Positions 2,344-58,986 are shown, counted from the first letter of the whole stretch. The stretch: 63,171 nt of DNA, filler included, from Rhabdomonas costata (GCA_019059605.1; 27 parts of 27 records of this genome joined end to end with filler, not necessarily neighbours in it), one strand, 5' to 3'. A program made the numbers and translations. The notes: generated from the letters alone by a model not told the origin.

Positions 2344-3440
2344 GTTGTGGGGGGCTGTCAGCGGCCCATTTTTCCGGAGCGTTGCCCATTGCAGCGTCAT
2401 GCATCTGCACAAACATGCTGCCGCTGCTGCGGAAATTTCATTTTACAAGGTTTCGCTCTTCTTCATTTTGTTTGCTTGAATTTGAAGTTGGAAGTGGTTG
2501 TGGCAAGCCGGACGCGAGGTTATTTGAAAGTTATTCCCTTTGTACTACTATGAGAATGGGAGCCCTGGAGAGGGTGCTGATCCCGGGGTGCGCCGATGTG
2601 TGGCTCCTGGAGGCGGGGGTTTTTGTGCCGCGGGTGCATACACCTCGGACCCGTGAGGTCTGCTCGCCCTTGGGCGTTTGGGATGGGGTCACATCTGTGG
2701 TCGAATTTCCTTGGTTTGTTATTTATCCTGTTGTGAAAATCCAGTTACTGAAAGAGTGCGAGAGTGCGAGAGTGAGTGAGTGAGTGAGTAAATGAATGTG
2801 CGCGTGTGTTCCCCCGTGTTTCTGGGAATGAGACAGACAGACAGACATGTCTCAGCCATCATGTTAAGTCTCGCGACTGCTGGAGACTCAGTCACCTTAT
2901 GTCCCCAATCTGCACTTGCTGACCTCAGTGTCCTGCATAGGAAGACCTGGTTGGAGTGAGGCCAGTTGCCTTCAGCCCCAACACCTAATCGAGACAGGGT
3001 GTTATACCGTGACACGGATTCGAGCCGATTTCGGCGAGCGACTGACAGTATGTTACGAGTTGTTACCCTTTGCACCAGCTGTGTGTGTGTGTGGCAAACA
3101 GATGCGTCAACTGAAGCTGATGTGTGCCTTTCTCTTCGTACGCCTTATATATTAGAACGAGCCACAGAAAAACAAACCTGCAGTGCCTTCACGCAGGTTG
3201 TTCACCTGACGAGTCTTCTGTTGTTCTCCTTGTTTAATGTAGTGTGGACTTGTGCAAATACTGAGGCTTTCGGAGAAGCCGGAATCCGGAAGACGGCTGT
3301 GAAGAGGACGGTGTCTGAGGTGCTTACAATAGTTTGGAGGCAATGGAGCTTATTGGTGTGGTTTGTAATCGTGGGGATTCCGCATGTGCTAAGACTGTAC
3401 CACACAATTATGAAGGAGGGCGAGAGCTGGGGATCCATTT

Positions 3441-4085
3441 GTGACGGTCGCGAATCGGGCAACCAATATGGTGGTTCTGATACCACGCCAGAATAAGATG
3501 AATGCCCACGACATTGCGGAGTTGTTCTGGTTGGAAGTGGTCAGACATCATGGGTTACCGATGAGTATAGTGAGTGACAGAGATCCTATCTTCATGTCGT
3601 TGTTCTGGAGAAACTTGATCGCTTTCTTAGACATCCATAGCAGAAGATCCTCGCCATACCATCCACAGACCAACGGAAAAGCAGAGCGAACCAACCAGAC
3701 CATGAAGCAGATGATGACCACGCTGATGTATTCGCATCCGGGCACAGGTTGGATGGACCTTTTGGTGTTGGTGAAGATTGAGATCAACAGTGCACCAATC
3801 GCAAACACGGAGTACAGTCCCTTCTACCTCAACTACGGGTATCATCCAGTGTTTTGGTGGGATCTGCCAGAGACAGCAGAGCCAGGTCCAGGAGCAGCGA
3901 GAGCTCCAGCGAGGTACCAGGTCAAGAGAATGAAGTCGATTTGGAAGAAGGTGCGGGAGGCATTTGAGAGATAAAAGCAGAAGGCCGCAGCCTATGCCAA
4001 TCGCAAGATGGCAGATTACAAGTTCAGTGTGTGTCAGGATGTGTTGATCAGTAAGAGGAGGCATTACCAAGGGAGGGATGTTTAG
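3441..4085 (+). mobile_element. Decayed Ty3/gypsy LTR-retrotransposon integrase fragment
   Basis: HGLPMSIVSDRDPIFMSLFW...SSPYHPQTNGKAERTNQTMKQ and SPFYLNYGYHP are gypsy rve motifs. Integrase-like sequence (KQKAAAYANRK...FSVCQDVLI) continues in frame past a premature TAA at 3972-3974. The N-terminal part is missing. Confidence 0.9.
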
Positions 4086-7429: not shown

Positions 7430-8881
7430 CCTTCACGGGCGCCAGAATGCGAGTCGCAATCTCACACGCTGGAAACTCGTTTCGCTTGAGGAACGGGCCG
7501 TAAACGCTTCGTTAGGAGCCGATTTGAGAGAGAGAGAGAGAAGAGCAGCAAATCGAGAGAGCGCAGACCACACGAAATGCAGTCCAAAGGGTGAACCGCA
7601 AAATGCGATCGATACAAAGTAGGGCAGAAGTAAAGCAGAGGCAAATCAACACTGAACCTGACTACTAATGGCATACGACGGCAACCCAGTGACTAGAACA
7701 GGTACTGGGTTCATGGTTGTATCACTCGAAACACAACGACCTTCACACACCTTACAATAGATTTCGGACAACCCCCGCCCCCCGCACTTCACAAAAACGT
7801 AACTCAACGAAAAGCATGATTCGCTCAAGCGCCAGTCTCAACCGAAAGAGTGTCCAATTGAAAGTTCACTTCTCGCTGTGGGTTTTTTGGCACCTCTATG
7901 GATCCCAGTTTTGTGCGGGCTTCTCTTTGTGGGCAGTGCATATTTCACACAAACGATCCCTCACCCCCTGAAACGTTCCCCATAAAAGCCTAATCCTAAA
8001 ACCGGTAAAATTCTACTAAGAAAGCCTTTCAAAGAAAAACCGAAAGTGTTTAACGAGAAAAACCCGAAGAAGAGATCATAAACGACCTCTGCTTTCCTTT
8101 TCGCTAGTGACCGTAAAACGCCGTTGCACGGTGTAACCGTCACATCATAACCAATATGACGCCGCGGGCTGGATTCAGTCTTTTATTAAATCGGCGTGAC
8201 GACCTGTCAAAACCCAACAACCAAAAAATTTGCCAACAAAAAAATCGTCAGACAGCAAGACCAGGAGAGGCACCAGTTTGGGTACTCGTCCTCTCACCAA
8301 GGGCAAACTACCTCTTGAGCGCCAACACGGATCAATGAGTTTTCGGAGGATAATAATGGCAGATTACCACGGGATTGCCCCACCCCTCCGCCCACGGAGA
8401 AAAAAATAAAAACGAGCACAGAGAAGTCAGTCACCAACTCGGCTGTGGGCAAGTGTACGGGCCGAAAAAGAAATGGAAGCGCAGAATCCGTCACTTCTTG
8501 CACTTCTGTGGCGCTGACGTGCGCATTTCACTGGCTGAGTAAGGGACACGTGTCGCCTGGCAGCAGTTCTTCCAGGTTCCTTTGCCCCACCGAAGAGGGC
8601 AGCTGATCAGACCGCAGATTCGTGAGGTGGATCCGCCAGGAAGCCAGGGACGGAACCAAAGCACGAGTATTGCGTATAAAAAACCATGAAACGCAAAACC
8701 ACTGGAGAAGTTACAAAAGAAGTTTGCACTTCCCCTCATTTTGAACTTCCGCACTTCGCTCCTCAAGTAGACCATACCACACCTTCTATATATAGCTGGC
8801 ACAAGACAAGCCAAAAAGTATCGTCCACCACCCCATGTCCCACATCCTCACTCTTCCTCCCAAAAACACACCCCACGGGGA

Positions 8882-10836: not shown

Positions 10837-12203
10837 CTGAACGGCAAGCAGACTCTCCACAAACCAAGTCATTCAAAGGAAGCGGGGCTGAAACGAGGAG
10901 AGAGAGAGAGAGAGCCCTGGCATTTCTTAAGTTATCTCGAGTGGCTCGAAAGTTCACAAATTCAAAACGCGGCACAGTGACACTTGGGGGTGGGGGCAGA
11001 GAAACCTAACCTAGGTTAACTTAGGTTCGGGCATCTAGGTTAGGACATCGCACATTTCATTTTCTCCGGGGCTTTGACACGTCTCTTCGTCTCCGATCCT
11101 CATGAGTCCCCCAGGCAAAACCCTCCCGCATTCTCTCCAACCACCTGTCTTTCCTTTCATCCCCTTGACCCGTGTGTCTGCTTATTTTACCCTGCCTGAT
11201 TATAATTAATTTCTTCCACCGCCATTCACTCGCTTTGTGTTATTTGCCTTTTGTTGGCCATCTCTGGTTTCGCTATTTTTGTCTTTGTTCCGTGCCGCTG
11301 TAATACATTGGCTTGAATTGCTTTCTTCGTCACGTGTTTCACCCATTGAATATGTGCACAAGCTGCTGAGTCATGAATCCAGGATGTCATTGAAACTACA
11401 GACATGCGGTTTTCTTCGCGAACTTCACATTCGTATAATTTCTCAGCTCCCTTCCCCACCACCCAGAGAACTCCTAAACGATTTGACTACTTAATGGTCA
11501 TCCACAAATTCCATGTCGTCCTGTGGAACACCCTTGGCAAACATAGTTACCAGTAGTAATCAGTGTCACCACTTCCCCACTCAAGCATCGACGCAACGAA
11601 GACACATCACAAGGACAACCAAAANNNNNNNNNNNNNNNNNNNNNNNNNNNNNNNNNNNNNNNNNNNNTTAATTAATTAANNNNNNNNNNNNNNNNNNNN
11701 NNNNNNNNNNNNNNNNNNNNNNNNCGATCCCACTTCTTTTTTTGGGGGGTGGGGGGGCGGATTTCCTTTTACCGTTAACTTTCTGGTGAAAAAGAGACCC
11801 CGGATGTTGTTGTTGGTGTTTGGTTTTGCTTCTGCCTTTGGAAAAGAGAGTTGTGCTGACACTGTGGACCAATGTTCCTTAGCCTTTGTTTGGGCCTCCA
11901 ACGTCTTGGTGTTGCCTTAGGATTGGATTTTCCCTGAAGTTTCCTGATTTCGGAACGTGCTTCGGAATTTCGGATAAGGGTGGGCTAATTTTCGGATGAC
12001 CTGCTTCGCTCTGAAAGCAATGCAGTGTGCCCATCTGCGCCCTGGCGTAGGGTATTGATCCTTCTGTTGGGGTGAGTTTCTCATATTCTGGAAGTGTCCA
12101 TCTTCTTTTTCTGCACCGCGGTTTGCCAAGATGCAGGCTTTCCTTCCGCACTGCTGACCGCCTCTGCGTTGTGGGGTCGTGTCGGATCGTGGTTGCCGCC
12201 TAA

Positions 12204-53632: not shown

Positions 53633-56291
53633 GTAGATCCCTCATTTCCTTCTATTCTTGCTTGACTGATGACAGTGGGTCATGGTGTCGACTTCACGGA
53701 CGTTATAGAGCGAAAGGCCCGGGACGCGAGCGTGGGCGTGGCCCCCTCTTCCCCCTTCCCTCTACTATGCAATAAATTCGCCTTGAGCGAAATACGGACC
53801 AACAAAANNNNNNNNNNNNNNNNNNNNNNNNNNNNNNNNNNNNNNNNNNNNTTAATTAATTAANNNNNNNNNNNNNNNNNNNNNNNNNNNNNNNNNNNNN
53901 NNNNNNNGGGTGTGGGGTCAGAAGAAAATGAAAGGATCCCAGAAGCCGCGTCTTCGCCACCGAGCGACAAGAAGACTGGGCAAGCGCAGAGGGTTGGAGC
54001 TCCTTGGAACCGCGGCGTAGTGCACCACTGAGGTTTCCAAAGAACCTCCGCCCAGCAGCAGAGGGGTGATCCGTAATCCGTTAATGAGCATTCTCAACAC
54101 CCCCGAGAGGTGGGAAGCTCTTTTTTAGAGTTGGGAAGCTCTACATGAGGAGCAAACTGAGCAAACCAATGCGGTACAGATGGCGTCGCAATGTCTGGGG
54201 TATCGTTGTTGATGAACAAGTGAATAAAAACATGTGAATAAGTTTCGTTGTGGATTATCGCGTGAGCAGCCACCCACTCTTGATTTTCAAGGTACCTGAA
54301 GCTTCTTTACCCGTGACGAGAAGTGACGAGGTAACGCGAGATCGCGACGCACCTTCTGGGCGGAGCCTTCCGAAGTGGAAGCTTCCTCCGCGAGGCCCAC
54401 TCCTCGCCCGCAGGAGGGGGGCATCCCTCCGCAGGCTTGGCAGGGAGCGGTGGGGCCCTGGCGGCAGAAGAGCTAAGGTGCGCAGCCTCCTGAACAAGCC
54501 TCCGCCTCCGAACGGCAAGGGTGGGCCGGGATGGCGGCTGGGTCACCGCCTTGTTCGCAGTTACCCCTGCGGGCCGGGCACTGCTTGGGCGAACAGGCTC
54601 GCCCATTCAGGGAAGGGATTATGGTACACAGCACCAAAGGGGGGCTACAGCACTACCACAAAAAAAAGCATCATGCGTCATTGACATGCACAATTTCAGG
54701 ACAAACAAATAGACATGAGCGAAGAATAGAGCCTCTGAAGCGAACACAGCAAAACAAGCGTTTCAGTGTTCAGGGCATCCGTAAACGTGCTCAAAATGGA
54801 GCGAGGAACGGGACATCGCCCACCGTTTGCTGCAGAGAAGCTCAAGCTCATCTATGCGATGAGATAAAAGTTTGGCCCAAGGGCATCACCTCGCCGGGTT
54901 GTACAGATATGCCGCGTATGCCAAAGAGGGTCTTCCAGGGAGCGGAACACCTACACTACAGGGAGCGGTAATAGAGCATTATATGTTGAACACGCACCAT
55001 CGGCATCAACAAAGGTCACGCACATCAGATGCTCAACGAAAACAACGCAGCTAGGCCAGCTCTGAATCCAAATCTGTTCTTCTGGAAGTGCTGTGCCAAG
55101 ATCTCTCAATGGTCATTTGCAACCAAAACAATTGTCAAAATTGGTCGACTGTAAAGTAGCACAACTTCTTTTAAGAGAATCTTGAGCCCAAAAGTGCGCA
55201 AGGAGAGAATAGCGTTGAAATGTGAAAATAGGCTTCCCCCTACAAAAATGTTCAAGTTCAAACCGGCTTGGATATACGGTGCTCAAAAAGCCAGTCCACC
55301 CCCATTCGACCTCTCTTCTCAAAGGCACAATGGCAAAATTCAGACAGGTAAGGTTATAAGAATGCAGCATAACCATCTCGCTGCCAGTTTAGCAGGTCTC
55401 GGCCCAGTCCCTGCAGCGTAACAAGGCCCGGATCACCCGATGCCCTCGCCGCACGAGAAGGCGGTCCGAATCCAGATCCAACTCCACCAGAACGCCGGTA
55501 GCTCATTCGTACGTCGTTGCCCGAATCACGAAGCGGCGGCCGAGCGACGCGAGGGGGGGGGGTCCCCTGAAAATCCGCAGCCTGCCTGCAACCATCGGCA
55601 TCAACAAAGCGTTTCCTGGACGACCTTAGCGAAGGCCCCAGAAAGGAGGAGCCGGGCACAATAGTGAAGCATGGCGCTTCACCCCTTCTGCCCATCTGCC
55701 TTAACTTCACCCATTATGCTCGGGTTTCCTTGCCCTCACGGAAGCACTAGCAAGTCCCTCATGTGCACGGTCATCGCGGCGAAGGGGTGGCACTGGTGCT
55801 CCCCAGTCCGCACATCCACTGTGGAGGAGTTCACCACGCGGTCGCAGTCCGACACCGGCTCGGCCATCATGGCGTGCGGGGGTCTGGCCCATACCAGGGC
55901 CCTCACACAGCTGTGGCATTCCCTGCAGCTTGGCGGAGGGGAGGCCTTCAGAGGAAACCGAAACCCCACGCAGGACGCACAGGAGGGGCACTGCGGAAAA
56001 GCAGACGCCGGGTCAGAAACCAAGCAGAGAACGTCCCGAAGAACGGAGAGGTACCCTGACAGGATGCGGTTCTTCGGCTCAACGATGTCAATTCTAAAAA
56101 AAAAAAGGCACAAAGGTCACGCACATGCAGATACTAAACGTAAACAAANNNNNNNNNNNNNNNNNNNNNNNNNNNNNNNNNNNNNNNNNNNNTTAATTAA
56201 TTAANNNNNNNNNNNNNNNNNNNNNNNNNNNNNNNNNNNNNNNNNNNNGTGTTTTTTTTATGCCATTTCTCCGCATGTCTTTTTTGTACAG

Positions 56292-56666
56292 GCTCCGAGC
56301 GTCAAAGTTGACCCTCAACAACTGGCTGAACTGCAAGGCTTCTACGTGGACAGCAAGCCGAGCATTGAGGTGACGGCAAAGGATCTGAACAGTGACCGTT
56401 TCCTCGCGTTTCGCTACACTAAAGAGGGGACATTTGTTCGAAATGACTTGTACGGCAGGGCGTTCCCGTTCTTCTCCTTATGGGTTCGGAGACCCTACTA
56501 TGACGACAAGGGGAAATTAGACGGTTCTGTGCCGGACGAGTTCCTGGACAAGGCGCTTTGGAATGAAGAAAAGCAGATTTTGAGAGACTACAGCGACGCA
56601 TTGAGAGCCTTCACGAAGACCGCAAGACGCAAGCCCAAACGATGGAACAGTGTCAATCTATTTTGA
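56292..56666 (+). CDS. Probable terminal exon of an unknown protein
   Basis: After a T-rich tract and CAG, a 124-codon open frame APSVKVDPQQLAELQGFYVDSKP...KRWNSVNLF*. No family recognised. Confidence 0.5.
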   Translation, partial: APSVKVDPQQLAELQGFYVDSKPSIEVTAKDLNSDRFLAFRYTKEGTFVRNDLYGRAFPFFSLWVRRPYYDDKGKLDGSVPDEFLDKALWNEEKQILRDYSDALRAFTKTARRKPKRWNSVNLF

Positions 56667-57354
56667 TGACTTGCCAATGTTTCATTGAAATGTTGTCCAT
56701 TTGTTATTTCTCACATTTGTGATTTTCAGATGGTTATGTTTTCTCATCTGGATTTGTTCCCTGACTGTCCTTTGTGGAACTGTCTGACCTTGTCTGTGGG
56801 TCGCTTGTGGTGACGCCTTGGGTGCGCCCGAATTCATTTTGACCAGGGCGGGGTGGTGAATGGAAAGGCATTTCTCCTTTTTAGCCTTTTTCAGGAGGCA
56901 ACGGCGATGAGCAGGACGAGCAACAAGAACGAGGACAAGGAGAAAACCCGAAAGGGGAGAACACTATTCTATGACAAAATCCCAAAATACATCTCATCTT
57001 TGTAAAACTTCAATTTTCCATTGTGAAGTAAAATTCGGTCAAACCCATAACTGCGTATTCCCACAATCCGAACCTATGGCTACTTCGAATTTTTCTCTCA
57101 TCATCCCTTCGACGCCAAAGCTTCGCCAATGCGTCAGCGCGCGTCCTTTTAAACAAACGGCGTAGGATGCACAATCCGGATGTCGACAAACCTTTTTTTA
57201 TTTTTTTTTATTTTTCACAAACAACGCGTTATGCCCGAGGCGCAGATTAGGAAATAAATGTGACGGCGAAGCTCCGCCACAAATTGGATGGATTCTTTTC
57301 TTGGACATAAGAAATAGAACTTCTTATACATTGCATAGTAGAAGGTCTAATTTT

Positions 57355-58083
57355 CTACTTTTGCAGCGCAGAACGCGCCCATTCCTTGATTACAGGTTTT
57401 CGTTTTGATGTCTGAACATCAGTAAGACTCAAACCGCTTTTTTTGAATTGTCTTTTCTGGGTTCTTGCTGTTTTCATAGCTGTGATGGTTGGTCCCCGTG
57501 ATGTTTTACCCAGTGCATCCACACCATACACAGGTTGCAGTTCATAATACTTGTATGACTTTCCGTCATCGAGTATGTAGCTGTGCGGTGTGCTGGAAAT
57601 AATGGTGTGTATGGTTTTTGACCACTTGGTGTCAGTTCCTTTAGAGAATTTCCCGCGAATTATACTGTGTCTGGCACGCTGACCAATGTCAAAAATTTCT
57701 TCTTCTGGTAGTGCTTTAAGATATTTTTTGTTGTTTAAACGTTCGATATCATCATCAATCTCTAGTACTTCGGCTGGTATTTTTTAATACCAGTATGATA
57801 ACTATGATTGTAATTATATATGAGATCTGGTAAAACATCTATATAATTAGTGGTGTTGTGCTGCACTTGGTACATTTGTATTTTTTGGCGTAGTGTTCTA
57901 ACGAAACGATCTACGATAGCAAGTTTGTTGTGTTCTCCAACCTGCACATGGTTCCTTTTCTCGCCAATCGTTTTACAAAGAGTTCACTTATGAACTCACT
58001 ACCTAAATCTGTTGTTACTACCAATGGCGAAATTAGGTTTATGATATCTTCAAGAGCTGTAATAACTGTGTGCGCATCTTTTT
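57355..58083 (-). mobile_element. Polinton/virophage/PLV-type rve integrase remnant (5'-truncated, two frameshifts)
   Basis: AT-rich and intronless. KDAHTVITALEDII...VVTTDLGSEFISELF, then HVQVGEHNKLAIVDRFVRTLRQKI...NYIDVLPDLIYNYNHSYHTGIK, then IPAEV...FDIGQRAR...FSKGTDTKWSKTIHTI...YILDDGKSYKYYELQPV...*. Frame breaks near 57950 and 57783. Confidence 0.85.
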
Positions 58084-58986
58084 CTTACGGTCGTATACTC
58101 AAACCTGTTTTATACGTACTATAATAATATACCGAACTATCCATAAAACGCATTCCTGTATTTTCAACGTATATAGGTACATTTGTATGAAGAACTTTTT
58201 TAAAGTTGTGTAACTTTTGTAAAGTTGTAATTCATTAAATATTCATTGTGTTCTTCTGAACACCTTTAGAGGGAATTTTTTCACACATCCAACACTCACA
58301 GCTTCACAGGGGACAGCGTGTTAGTGCGTCAGGTGAGGAAGGTGAAAAAAGTAGCAGAGGGAGGACGCAGAGGAATAGGTGCACGAAACAGTAACCACGA
58401 GACCCTGGAAGCTGTGAGTGTTGGATGTGTGAAAAAATTCCCTCTAAAGGTGTTCAGAAGAACACAATGAATATTTAATGAATTACAACACNNNNNNNNN
58501 NNNNNNNNNNNNNNNNNNNNNNNNNNNNNNNNNNNTTAATTAATTAANNNNNNNNNNNNNNNNNNNNNNNNNNNNNNNNNNNNNNNNNNNNTTTTTTGTG
58601 TGTGCGTGCAATATTTCAACCGCACCGCGGTGATGCCTTCTCGCCCCGCATGTGGTGGAGGGATTTGAGTGCGGGGGAGCGCGGAGAGTTGTTTGCTCCC
58701 ATCCTTTTCATTCCCTTTCCCTCTGGACGACATGTACTCGGTTGAGACATGTCGTCATGAGCTCGAAGTTGAAACCCTTCCGGATCCGGAAAGCTTGAAT
58801 TTGAAGTCATCGGTTGGGTCATTGGTTGCTGCTGGTTGCTGTTGGTTCGCATGTTCGCGGCTGCCGAGAGGATTTCTGAAGGAACCATTTTTGACGGAGA
58901 GGTCTTCTGATTTTTACCGTTCTTTGGTCTGCAGTTGCAATGCAGACCCTCTGTGTGACGCCCGTGGTTCTGCTTCTATTTTTCAG

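Follow-up and report, generated by a model that had tools for sequence, protein, structure and literature searches.

Polintons (Mavericks) are endowed with genes for a pPolB polymerase, an A32-type ATPase, a protease, an integrase of the rve type and a double jelly-roll (DJR) capsid protein. Polinton integrases are described as devoid of the HHCC zinc-binding N-terminal domain (PMC10045372), and polinton-like or virophage-like fragments as common in protist genomes (PMC10120064). In groups of Polinton-like viruses (PLVs) encoding rve integrases, pPolB and superfamily 1 (SF1) helicase replication genes replace each other (10.64898/2026.06.19.733378). The association of pPolB with DDE integrases is reported as stable, a functional tie of the two at the genome ends having been proposed, and 'transpoviron-like' modules made up by pPolB and a DDE integrase, without capsid genes, have been described (10.64898/2026.10.13.758929). 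The locus analyzed here resides in a window of 63,171 bases attributed to Rhabdomonas costata (GCA_019059605.1), which consists of 27 unrelated contigs of 2239-2247 bp each (~2.24 kb), separated by N44-TTAATTAATTAA-N44 spacers. Bases 57355-58285, read on the minus strand, are best explained, at a probability of about 0.8, as a dead fragment of ~0.93 kb from the replication-integration end of a polinton-like/virophage-like DNA element (Polisuviricotina). The fragment is located on contig 25 (window 56249-58491, 2243 bp); as the contigs are unrelated, the sequences next to contig 25 in the window provide no context.

The fragment would correspond to the 3' end of a pPolB gene, followed by a retroviral-type (rve) integrase gene, which is exactly the two-gene junction of the capsid-less modules mentioned above. 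Replication of the parent element would have been protein-primed, and its linear DNA would have been inserted by an integrase made up by three domains: a helix-turn-helix at the N-terminus, a core with the RNase H fold and, at the C-terminus, a small beta-barrel. The copy found in the window would have lost all that lay upstream of the last ~90 codons of the polymerase. The Asp of IVDRFVRTLR occupies the site of the metal-binding Glu found on helix alpha-4 in retroviral integrases, and was inherited: the integrases of the large clade from which it comes are intact and evolve under purifying selection.

The initial annotation had identified, from the motifs TTDLGSEF through YKYYELQ, a single integrase of Polinton/virophage type. 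All these motifs are present on the minus strand, spread over three reading frames (57358-58084). The integrase sequence is real, but is broken into three pieces in as many frames, and the feature runs past the end first assigned to it, up to 58285, to include pPolB sequences. The first piece of the core (57914-58084, frame 1; VVTTDLGSEFISELFVKRLARKGT) matches positions 107-154 of the family profile (E 2e-8, 22.2 bits), and contains TTDLGSEF (57992-58015) with the second catalytic Asp (codon 58007-58009), aligned with an Asp invariant in relatives. The second piece (57765-57983, frame 2; HVQVGEHNKLAIVDRFVRTLRQKIQMYQVQHNTTNYIDVLPDLIYNYNHSYHTGIKK) matches positions 144-239 (E 7e-26, 79.5 bits), and contains LAIVDRFVRTLR (57888-57923), in which Asp is found at the third catalytic position (Asp codon of IVDRF at 57909-57911). 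The third piece (57355-57783, frame 3; IPAEVLEIDDDIERLNNKKYLKALPEEEIFDIGQRARHSIIRGKFSKGTDTKWSKTIHTIISSTPHSYILDDGKSYKYYELQPV in 57358-57783) ends with a stop codon at 57355-57357, and corresponds to the linker helix and the C-terminal small beta-barrel domain (positions 213-339, E 2e-34, 107.7 bits). The motifs located farther downstream on the same strand are YNYNHSYHTGIKK, FDIGQRAR, FSKGTDTKWS and YKYYELQ. The frame changes at ~57950-57965 between the first two pieces, and at a run of six T residues (57780-57785) between the second and the third. The GC content of the pieces ranges from 0.36 to 0.41.

The family profile was derived from 26 full-length relatives and spans 353 positions; a subset of 6 sequences was used to scan loci, the alignment of all 26 being too diverse for the purpose. 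Pfam rve matches the first piece (E 0.0034, 18 bits, with a cut-off of 32.6), and neither of the other two. The 142-residue C-terminal piece, compared by phmmer to 1.84 billion representative sequences, yielded 115 matches at E <= 1e-3 and 34 at E <= 1e-10, the best one at E 2.8e-25 and 48% identity. Judged by sequence comparison, this family match is far above chance. Full-length relatives are ~350 residues long, and Pfam rve was detected in 11 of the 11 scanned (34-58 bits). The closest protein, P0210, is identical at 74% over 62 residues of the second piece and at 64% over 129 residues of the third. Twenty relatives looked up by cluster come from metagenomes, and bear no other names than 'hypothetical protein' and 'transposase InsO family protein'. 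No match was found in the phage collection with the relative P0005 as query, nor in a PDB sequence search with the C-terminal piece.

Directly upstream of the integrase gene, the interval 58091-58285 of the minus strand corresponds to the C-terminal part of a pPolB gene, interrupted by two consecutive in-frame stops (58232-58237) and truncated at the 5' side near 58285. Contig 25 was searched by tblastn with 115 open reading frames (ORFs) flanking the integrase in close loci; the pPolB C-termini of three of these (L005, L020 and L023) match 58091-58282 with 45% identity over 60-64 residues (E 1e-12 to 1e-13). With filters off, the pPolB C-terminal profile matches 58097-58285 at positions 227-284 of 313 (E 1.4e-5), and reports nothing with default filters. 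The family of ORFs found upstream of the close integrases has no Pfam name. Since its profile matches the last ~315 residues of Pfam-confirmed pPolBs (L001, L040, L056, L061 and L066; E 1e-87 to 1e-104), and members of the family carry the YMDTDS motif, it can be identified as the pPolB C-terminus. The interval 58088-58231 had also been considered as a degenerate integrase N-terminus, according to a 41% tblastn extension to residue 91 of P0210. This assignment was rejected, as pPolB fits far better, 16 of 25 core residues being identical to those of pPolB C-termini (E 1e-12).

The polymerase to integrase order is the same in the window and in the relatives, in which the two genes abut or overlap (1-453 and 441-1544 in L005, 1578-2426 and 2414-2929 in L020). 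In the window the genes are joined at a deletion junction (58085-58096, minus strand), which includes an in-frame stop (58085-58087): the pPolB match stops at 58097 (profile position 284 of 313), that of the integrase begins at 58084 (profile position 107), and only ~12 bases are left in between, ~0.4 kb being missing. Lost are the last ~29 positions of pPolB and positions 1-106 of the integrase, that is to say the helix-turn-helix N-terminal domain, the first catalytic Asp and the conserved Asp of the second strand, so that the second and third catalytic positions are the only ones to survive in this copy. No further homology was found upstream of 58285, where composition turns host-like. The copy is dead: it features two frameshifts, three in-frame stops, the ~0.4-kb internal deletion and the 5' truncation.

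Relatives were monitored in metagenomes, the best 80 of 286 being kept. Because they bear no informative names, gene neighbourhoods were used for classification. The pPolB C-terminus lies directly upstream of the integrase in 11 loci of the Asp type or near to it, and the pPolB to integrase order seen in the window was found in L001, L004, L005, L013, L020, L022 and others. In the closest loci two kinds of gene were found directly upstream, in the same orientation as the integrase: one encodes a member of the pPolB C-terminus family, the other a large SF1-helicase protein with an HNH/endonuclease VII-like end (L002, L007, L017 and L018). This replacement of pPolB by an SF1 helicase upstream of Asp-type integrases resembles the one described for PLVs (10.64898/2026.06.19.733378).

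The most informative neighbourhood is that of L001, a 17-kb IMG/VR viral contig with a GC content of ~0.25, which encodes a Pox_A32 packaging ATPase, a pPolB of 1288 residues and, as last gene, the integrase. A 600-residue protein encoded by the same contig has an Atlas model similar to capsid clusters of Preplasmiviricota (TM 0.79) and to DJR/Sputnik-MCP families; a PDB sequence search with this ORF gave no match. Gene content and terminal position of the integrase make L001 similar to virophages and PLVs, and the integrase of the virophage mavirus matches the P0210 model (see below). Integrases of L001, and of the 20-kb IMG/VR contig L082, where a helicase gene and then an integrase gene are found at one end, differ from the window copy in having Glu at the third catalytic position.

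More distant loci, all of the Glu type, look like classical polintons. Among 45 neighbour ORFs scanned, 6 encode pPolB (L040, L047, L056, L061, L066 and L079) and 8 ATPases of the A32/IVa2 type, the order being pPolB, ATPase, integrase and an ORF of ~440 residues. These polinton-like loci (L036-L079) were found with the same profile, and thus share with the window both the integrase family and the pPolB-integrase linkage. In contrast, Glu is the third catalytic residue of their integrases and is accompanied by Asn at +3, and alignment to the query is limited to residues ~30-273, with 31-38% identity; the clade of the window is AT-rich, has Asp, and is more homogeneous in the C-terminal domain. 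Linkage of the relatives to pPolB, A32 ATPase and a DJR capsid-like protein supports assignment of the relic to the polinton/virophage/PLV group, as far as gene content of relatives can tell, and leads to rejection of Ginger-type transposons and long terminal repeat (LTR) elements as its source. The Polinton/virophage origin initially proposed is thus upheld both by the pPolB fragment in the window and by the viral genes linked to the relatives, the absence of which had been singled out as a reason to abandon it.

Some of these loci deserve a few more words. Helicase proteins of >1350 residues (L007:2-4123, L002:25-2736 and L082:9125-13195) are SF1 RecD/AAA_30-like, end with a Cys/His HNH or endonuclease VII-like motif, and have a long N-terminal part not assigned to any family; an Endonuclease_7 domain is also found in the L001 pPolB. 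L082 additionally encodes the small subunit of ribonucleotide reductase (7637-8602, Pfam E 1.4e-99), an odd cargo for so small an element, and the polinton-like metagenome locus L079 a protein with BIR (inhibitor of apoptosis) and RING domains (11394-11990). L020 (1-2931) has a terminal direct repeat of 255 nt (99%), with a spacing of 2676 nt. The unit so defined contains a partial pPolB only (283 residues, beginning inside the polymerase), an Asp-type integrase and an ORF of 144 residues, and the same order is found in L005 (1-2819). The L020/L005 unit is a capsid-less mini-module of polymerase and integrase, either closed into a circle of 2.7 kb or arrayed in tandem; by content, it is similar to the 'transpoviron-like' modules.

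In the integrase of prototype foamy virus (PFV), the residue aligned with the Asp of the window is the Glu of VERKNSDIK (profile-to-PDB search, best E 5.3e-16). The third catalytic residue is Asp in 25, Asn in 2 and Glu in 54 of the 81 loci L001-L081. Asp and Asn are found in the relatives with 44-53% identity, which have intact ORFs, Glu in the distant loci plus L001 and L022. When 217 sequences were considered, window included, 126 had Asp, 24 Asn and 67 Glu. A FastTree tree was obtained from 203 of these, 14 rows having been dropped as duplicates or because of >25% gaps. Window and P0210 are sisters (support 0.985), and the clades nested around the pair are formed by Asp sequences exclusively (19 of 19, support 0.997), or nearly so (53 Asp and 1 Asn of 54, support 0.925; 69 Asp, 3 Asn and 1 Glu of 73, support 0.992). 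Upon midpoint rooting, Glu is placed at the root and 13 changes are counted, Asn appearing in 8 clades or singletons (one of 10, one of 7 and six of 1 member).

Two more residues vary along with the catalytic one. Asn is found at +3 in 65 of the 67 Glu-type sequences, in which +7 is Lys (39) or Arg (27). At +3 the 125 Asp-type sequences have Val, Ile or Cys (117), never Asn, and at +7 Arg (123); the 24 Asn-type sequences have Cys or Ile (22) and Arg (24), respectively. In the window, Asp is accompanied by Val at +3 and by Arg at +7, as in the Asp type; in PFV the corresponding residues are Asn and Lys. The ratio dN/dS, calculated by the NG86 method, ranged from 0.07 to 0.25 in the 8 pairs of Asp- or Asn-type genes for which it could be computed, a ninth pair being saturated. 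Intact Asn-type integrases (L010, L011, P0011, P0014, P0015, P0035 and P0086) are an observation in their own right: dN/dS is 0.088 between L010 and L011, and an amide kept by purifying selection at a metal-ligand position is unexplained.

Because intact relatives have Asp, the surrounding clade is all-Asp, the +3 and +7 residues covary and dN/dS is low, the Asp is, by these comparative data, a trait inherited within a clade of functional genes, rather than a product of decay. By the rooting adopted, Glu is the ancestral residue, which changed to Asp and, several times, to Asn, with replacement of the +3 Asn by Val, Ile or Cys and fixation of Arg at +7. The first two catalytic Asp residues do not vary among the sequences aligned (43 of 43), and intact members of the clade are D-D-D. 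The DDD triad first proposed for the window stands in part: the third residue is Asp, and the triad is that of the intact relatives, but in the window copy the first Asp is deleted. With the second Asp present and Asp instead of Glu at the third position, this copy lacks the literal D-D-E feature of rve.

The P0210 structure predicted by AF2 from the 43-sequence alignment (pLDDT 89.8) places the first two catalytic Asp residues on strand 76-83 and at the end of strand 136-140, respectively, and residue 176, the third position, on the long helix 169-192; the part matching the third piece of the relic is folded as a helix followed by five strands. Foldseek retrieved PFV, simian T-lymphotropic virus (STLV) and Ty3 integrases (E 2e-19 to 5e-13), indicative of an RNase H-fold core. 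The model aligns to the chains of the PFV intasome over ~340 columns (E 2e-19, TM 0.58-0.60). In BFVD it matches, among many retroviral entries, the integrases of MELD virus (E 8e-20) and mavirus (rve, E 7.7e-15). The enzymes of PFV, of the human and simian T-lymphotropic viruses (HTLV/STLV) and of Ty3 thus have the same three-domain layout, the same core fold and aligned catalytic positions. In contrast to retroviral and LTR integrases, no HHCC zinc domain is seen here, the third ligand is Asp in the Asp-type enzymes, in which the +3 Asn is lost, and the gene is linked to pPolB and not to reverse transcriptase. The N-terminus of the relatives is helical and has no paired His/Cys residues; that part is deleted in the window. 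Neither reverse transcriptase, nor LTR, nor HHCC finger were found on contig 25, from which the integrase N-terminus is missing.

Asp-type enzymes are presumably active as D-D-D integrases. The mariner and piggyBac transposases are D-D-D enzymes of the DDE superfamily, and in those families a shorter acidic third ligand is compatible with transposition. They belong to unrelated subfamilies, and may serve as an analogy only for the way an Asp-type integrase could work.

Other explanations of the integrase can be weighed on these data. Derivation from a Ginger/TDD-type DNA transposon or an LTR retroelement could be argued from the core, generically retroviral-like, from the best matches among solved structures (foamy virus, HTLV and Ty3 integrases), and from rve being the only Pfam family seen. 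It is nevertheless very improbable, given the pPolB fragment directly upstream in the window, the pPolB, A32 ATPase and DJR capsid-like genes of relatives, their helix-turn-helix N-terminus without His/Cys pairs, the absence on contig 25 of reverse transcriptase, RNase H, protease and LTR, and the MELD virus and mavirus integrases among the BFVD matches; moreover, the LTR-type integrase found on contig 2 of the same window reaches only 18 bits with this family's profile. The C-terminal motif pattern had originally been taken as sufficient to set aside LTR elements; pPolB linkage and the low score of contig 2 are in keeping with this, indirectly. Still less credible is that Asp arose by decay of a dead copy. 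The damage elsewhere in the copy would suit this explanation, which is contradicted by the 19 of 19 Asp in the well-supported clade of the window, by Asp in intact ORFs of 25 of the 27 closest loci, and by the +3 and +7 residues of the window itself, which are those of the Asp type. Variation among copies, on which a decay mutation was originally made to hinge, therefore speaks for inheritance, 25 of 81 related loci having Asp and the window residing in an all-Asp clade. More weight, yet a minor one, goes to the hypothesis that Asp- and Asn-type proteins are not catalytic, and act as DNA-binding or adaptor proteins (e.g., end-binding partners of the protein-primed polymerase), integration being carried out by other means. 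The Asn under purifying selection at a metal-ligand position, its origin in 8 separate clades or singletons, the loss of the +3 Asn shared by PFV integrase, and the functional tie of pPolB and DDE proteins proposed at genome ends (10.64898/2026.10.13.758929) all fit this rather unlikely alternative. Invariance of the first two Asp residues does not, and other DDE-fold enzymes, the 'DDD/E' transposases of the literature (PMC10045372), normally employ Asp as third ligand.

Integration of the polinton-like fragment in a protist genome is probable, judging from the broken gene and from base composition. The GC content of contig 25 is 0.416, vs. 0.472-0.645 in the other 26 contigs; the AT-rich island initially reported is real in this sense, but is an island only within a single contig of 2243 bp. 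A third-order Markov model, trained on the other 26 contigs vs. the Asp-type loci, scored 56249-57150 and 58249-58448 as host-like, 57650-58250 as virus-like, and the 3' half of the integrase as intermediate. The GC content of Asp-type metagenome integrases has a median of 0.305 (range 0.21-0.385), and that of the relic is at or above the top of this range, which fits long residence in a GC-richer genome.

The competing explanation is that the AT-rich segment comes from a free virus, or from an element of another organism in the culture, its join to GC-richer DNA being a chimera of amplification or assembly. If the assignment to Rhabdomonas costata is right, the published draft was obtained from whole-genome-amplified DNA of sorted cells and short reads, with an N50 of 1194 (PMC8219788), and chimeric contig ends are plausible in a draft of this kind. 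A perfect inverted repeat of 82 nt (arms 58224-58305 and 58408-58489, 100% complementary, 102-nt loop), the sole inverted repeat of contig 25, stops 2 nt short of the contig end, one arm overlapping the end of the pPolB fragment. It was not found by self-blastn in the other contigs of the window, and probably arose as a snap-back during amplification or assembly; other contig ends of the assembly may bear the same artefact. At least one junction may accordingly be artificial. The gene in the other flank, an open frame of 138 codons on the plus strand (56250-56663, GC3 0.59) in host-like DNA outside the element, has no Pfam family and found no homologue in two protein searches. Against a chimera stand the two frameshifts, the three stops and the 0.4-kb deletion at the polymerase-integrase junction, which are not expected in a replicating virus, the GC content of the relic, and the host-like Markov score of both flanks. 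The chimera is on balance improbable, if somewhat less so than a non-catalytic role of the integrase.

The hairpin, the type of draft, and the flank gene without homologues weigh against the reading proposed here, and so do several other results. The host-likeness of the flanks comes from the composition model alone, and no repeat is common to contig 25 and other contigs of the window. A second copy of this integrase family was not found elsewhere in the 27 contigs. Capsid, ATPase and protease genes, terminal inverted repeats and target site duplications were not seen on the 2.2 kb of contig 25, in which the copy is truncated, nor were capsid, ATPase or protease genes of a polinton-type element found anywhere in the 27-contig window. 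No gene for capsid, A32 ATPase or protease was found beside an Asp-type integrase among the Asp-type loci examined, on contigs of 1-6 kb (the Asp-type proteins P0168, P0171 and P0172 come from larger contigs, of 13-19 kb), and IMG/VR scans, run with the relative P0172 and with the 8 nearest relatives, detected no Asp-type locus.

Few other features call for mention. Contig 2 carries on the plus strand (3414-3971) a GC-richer fragment of an rve integrase, with SDRDPIF and YHPQTNGKAERTNQTMK, hence Glu and, at +3, Asn. This integrase is of the typical LTR-retrotransposon type, and provides within the window a contrast to the relic. No Rfam families were detected over the whole window.

As a dead polinton-like fragment the relic is an ordinary one; the Asp/Asn clade is a variant of which no description was found in the texts available. 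Specifically, no clade with Asp or Asn and covarying helix residues was found in the accessible literature on DDD Polinton integrases or on the catalytic triads of virophage rve integrases. If the assignment of the source organism is right, the relic would be the trace left in a euglenid by a polinton-like element. Reports of elements of this kind in euglenids were not found in the sources at hand: the main text of PMC10120064 does not contain the string 'euglen' (0 occurrences), the available part of its supplement includes euglenid assemblies only among the genomes screened, in a capsid-based screen that would miss this fragment, and euglenids have 0 mentions in two 2026 preprints (supplements lying outside this count). 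Giant endogenous viral elements have been reported for Euglena gracilis (PMC12455990), and this makes small satellite-like viruses of euglenids plausible.

Following the Asp of a broken gene led to a coherent clade of retroviral-type integrases with Asp or Asn and covarying active-site residues. It is tentatively proposed, with less assurance than the origin of the relic itself, that a large, AT-rich and environmentally abundant clade of polinton-like/virophage-type integrases, kept by purifying selection, changed the catalytic Glu, universal in retroviral-type integrases, to Asp and then, repeatedly, Asp to Asn, lost the +3 Asn and fixed Arg at +7 on helix alpha-4, the window being its first trace in a euglenid genome. 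If this is true, and if Asp forms are active and Asn forms either inactive or served by another ligand, the clade would represent a natural series for the rebuilding of the two-metal site in integrases of retroviral type.

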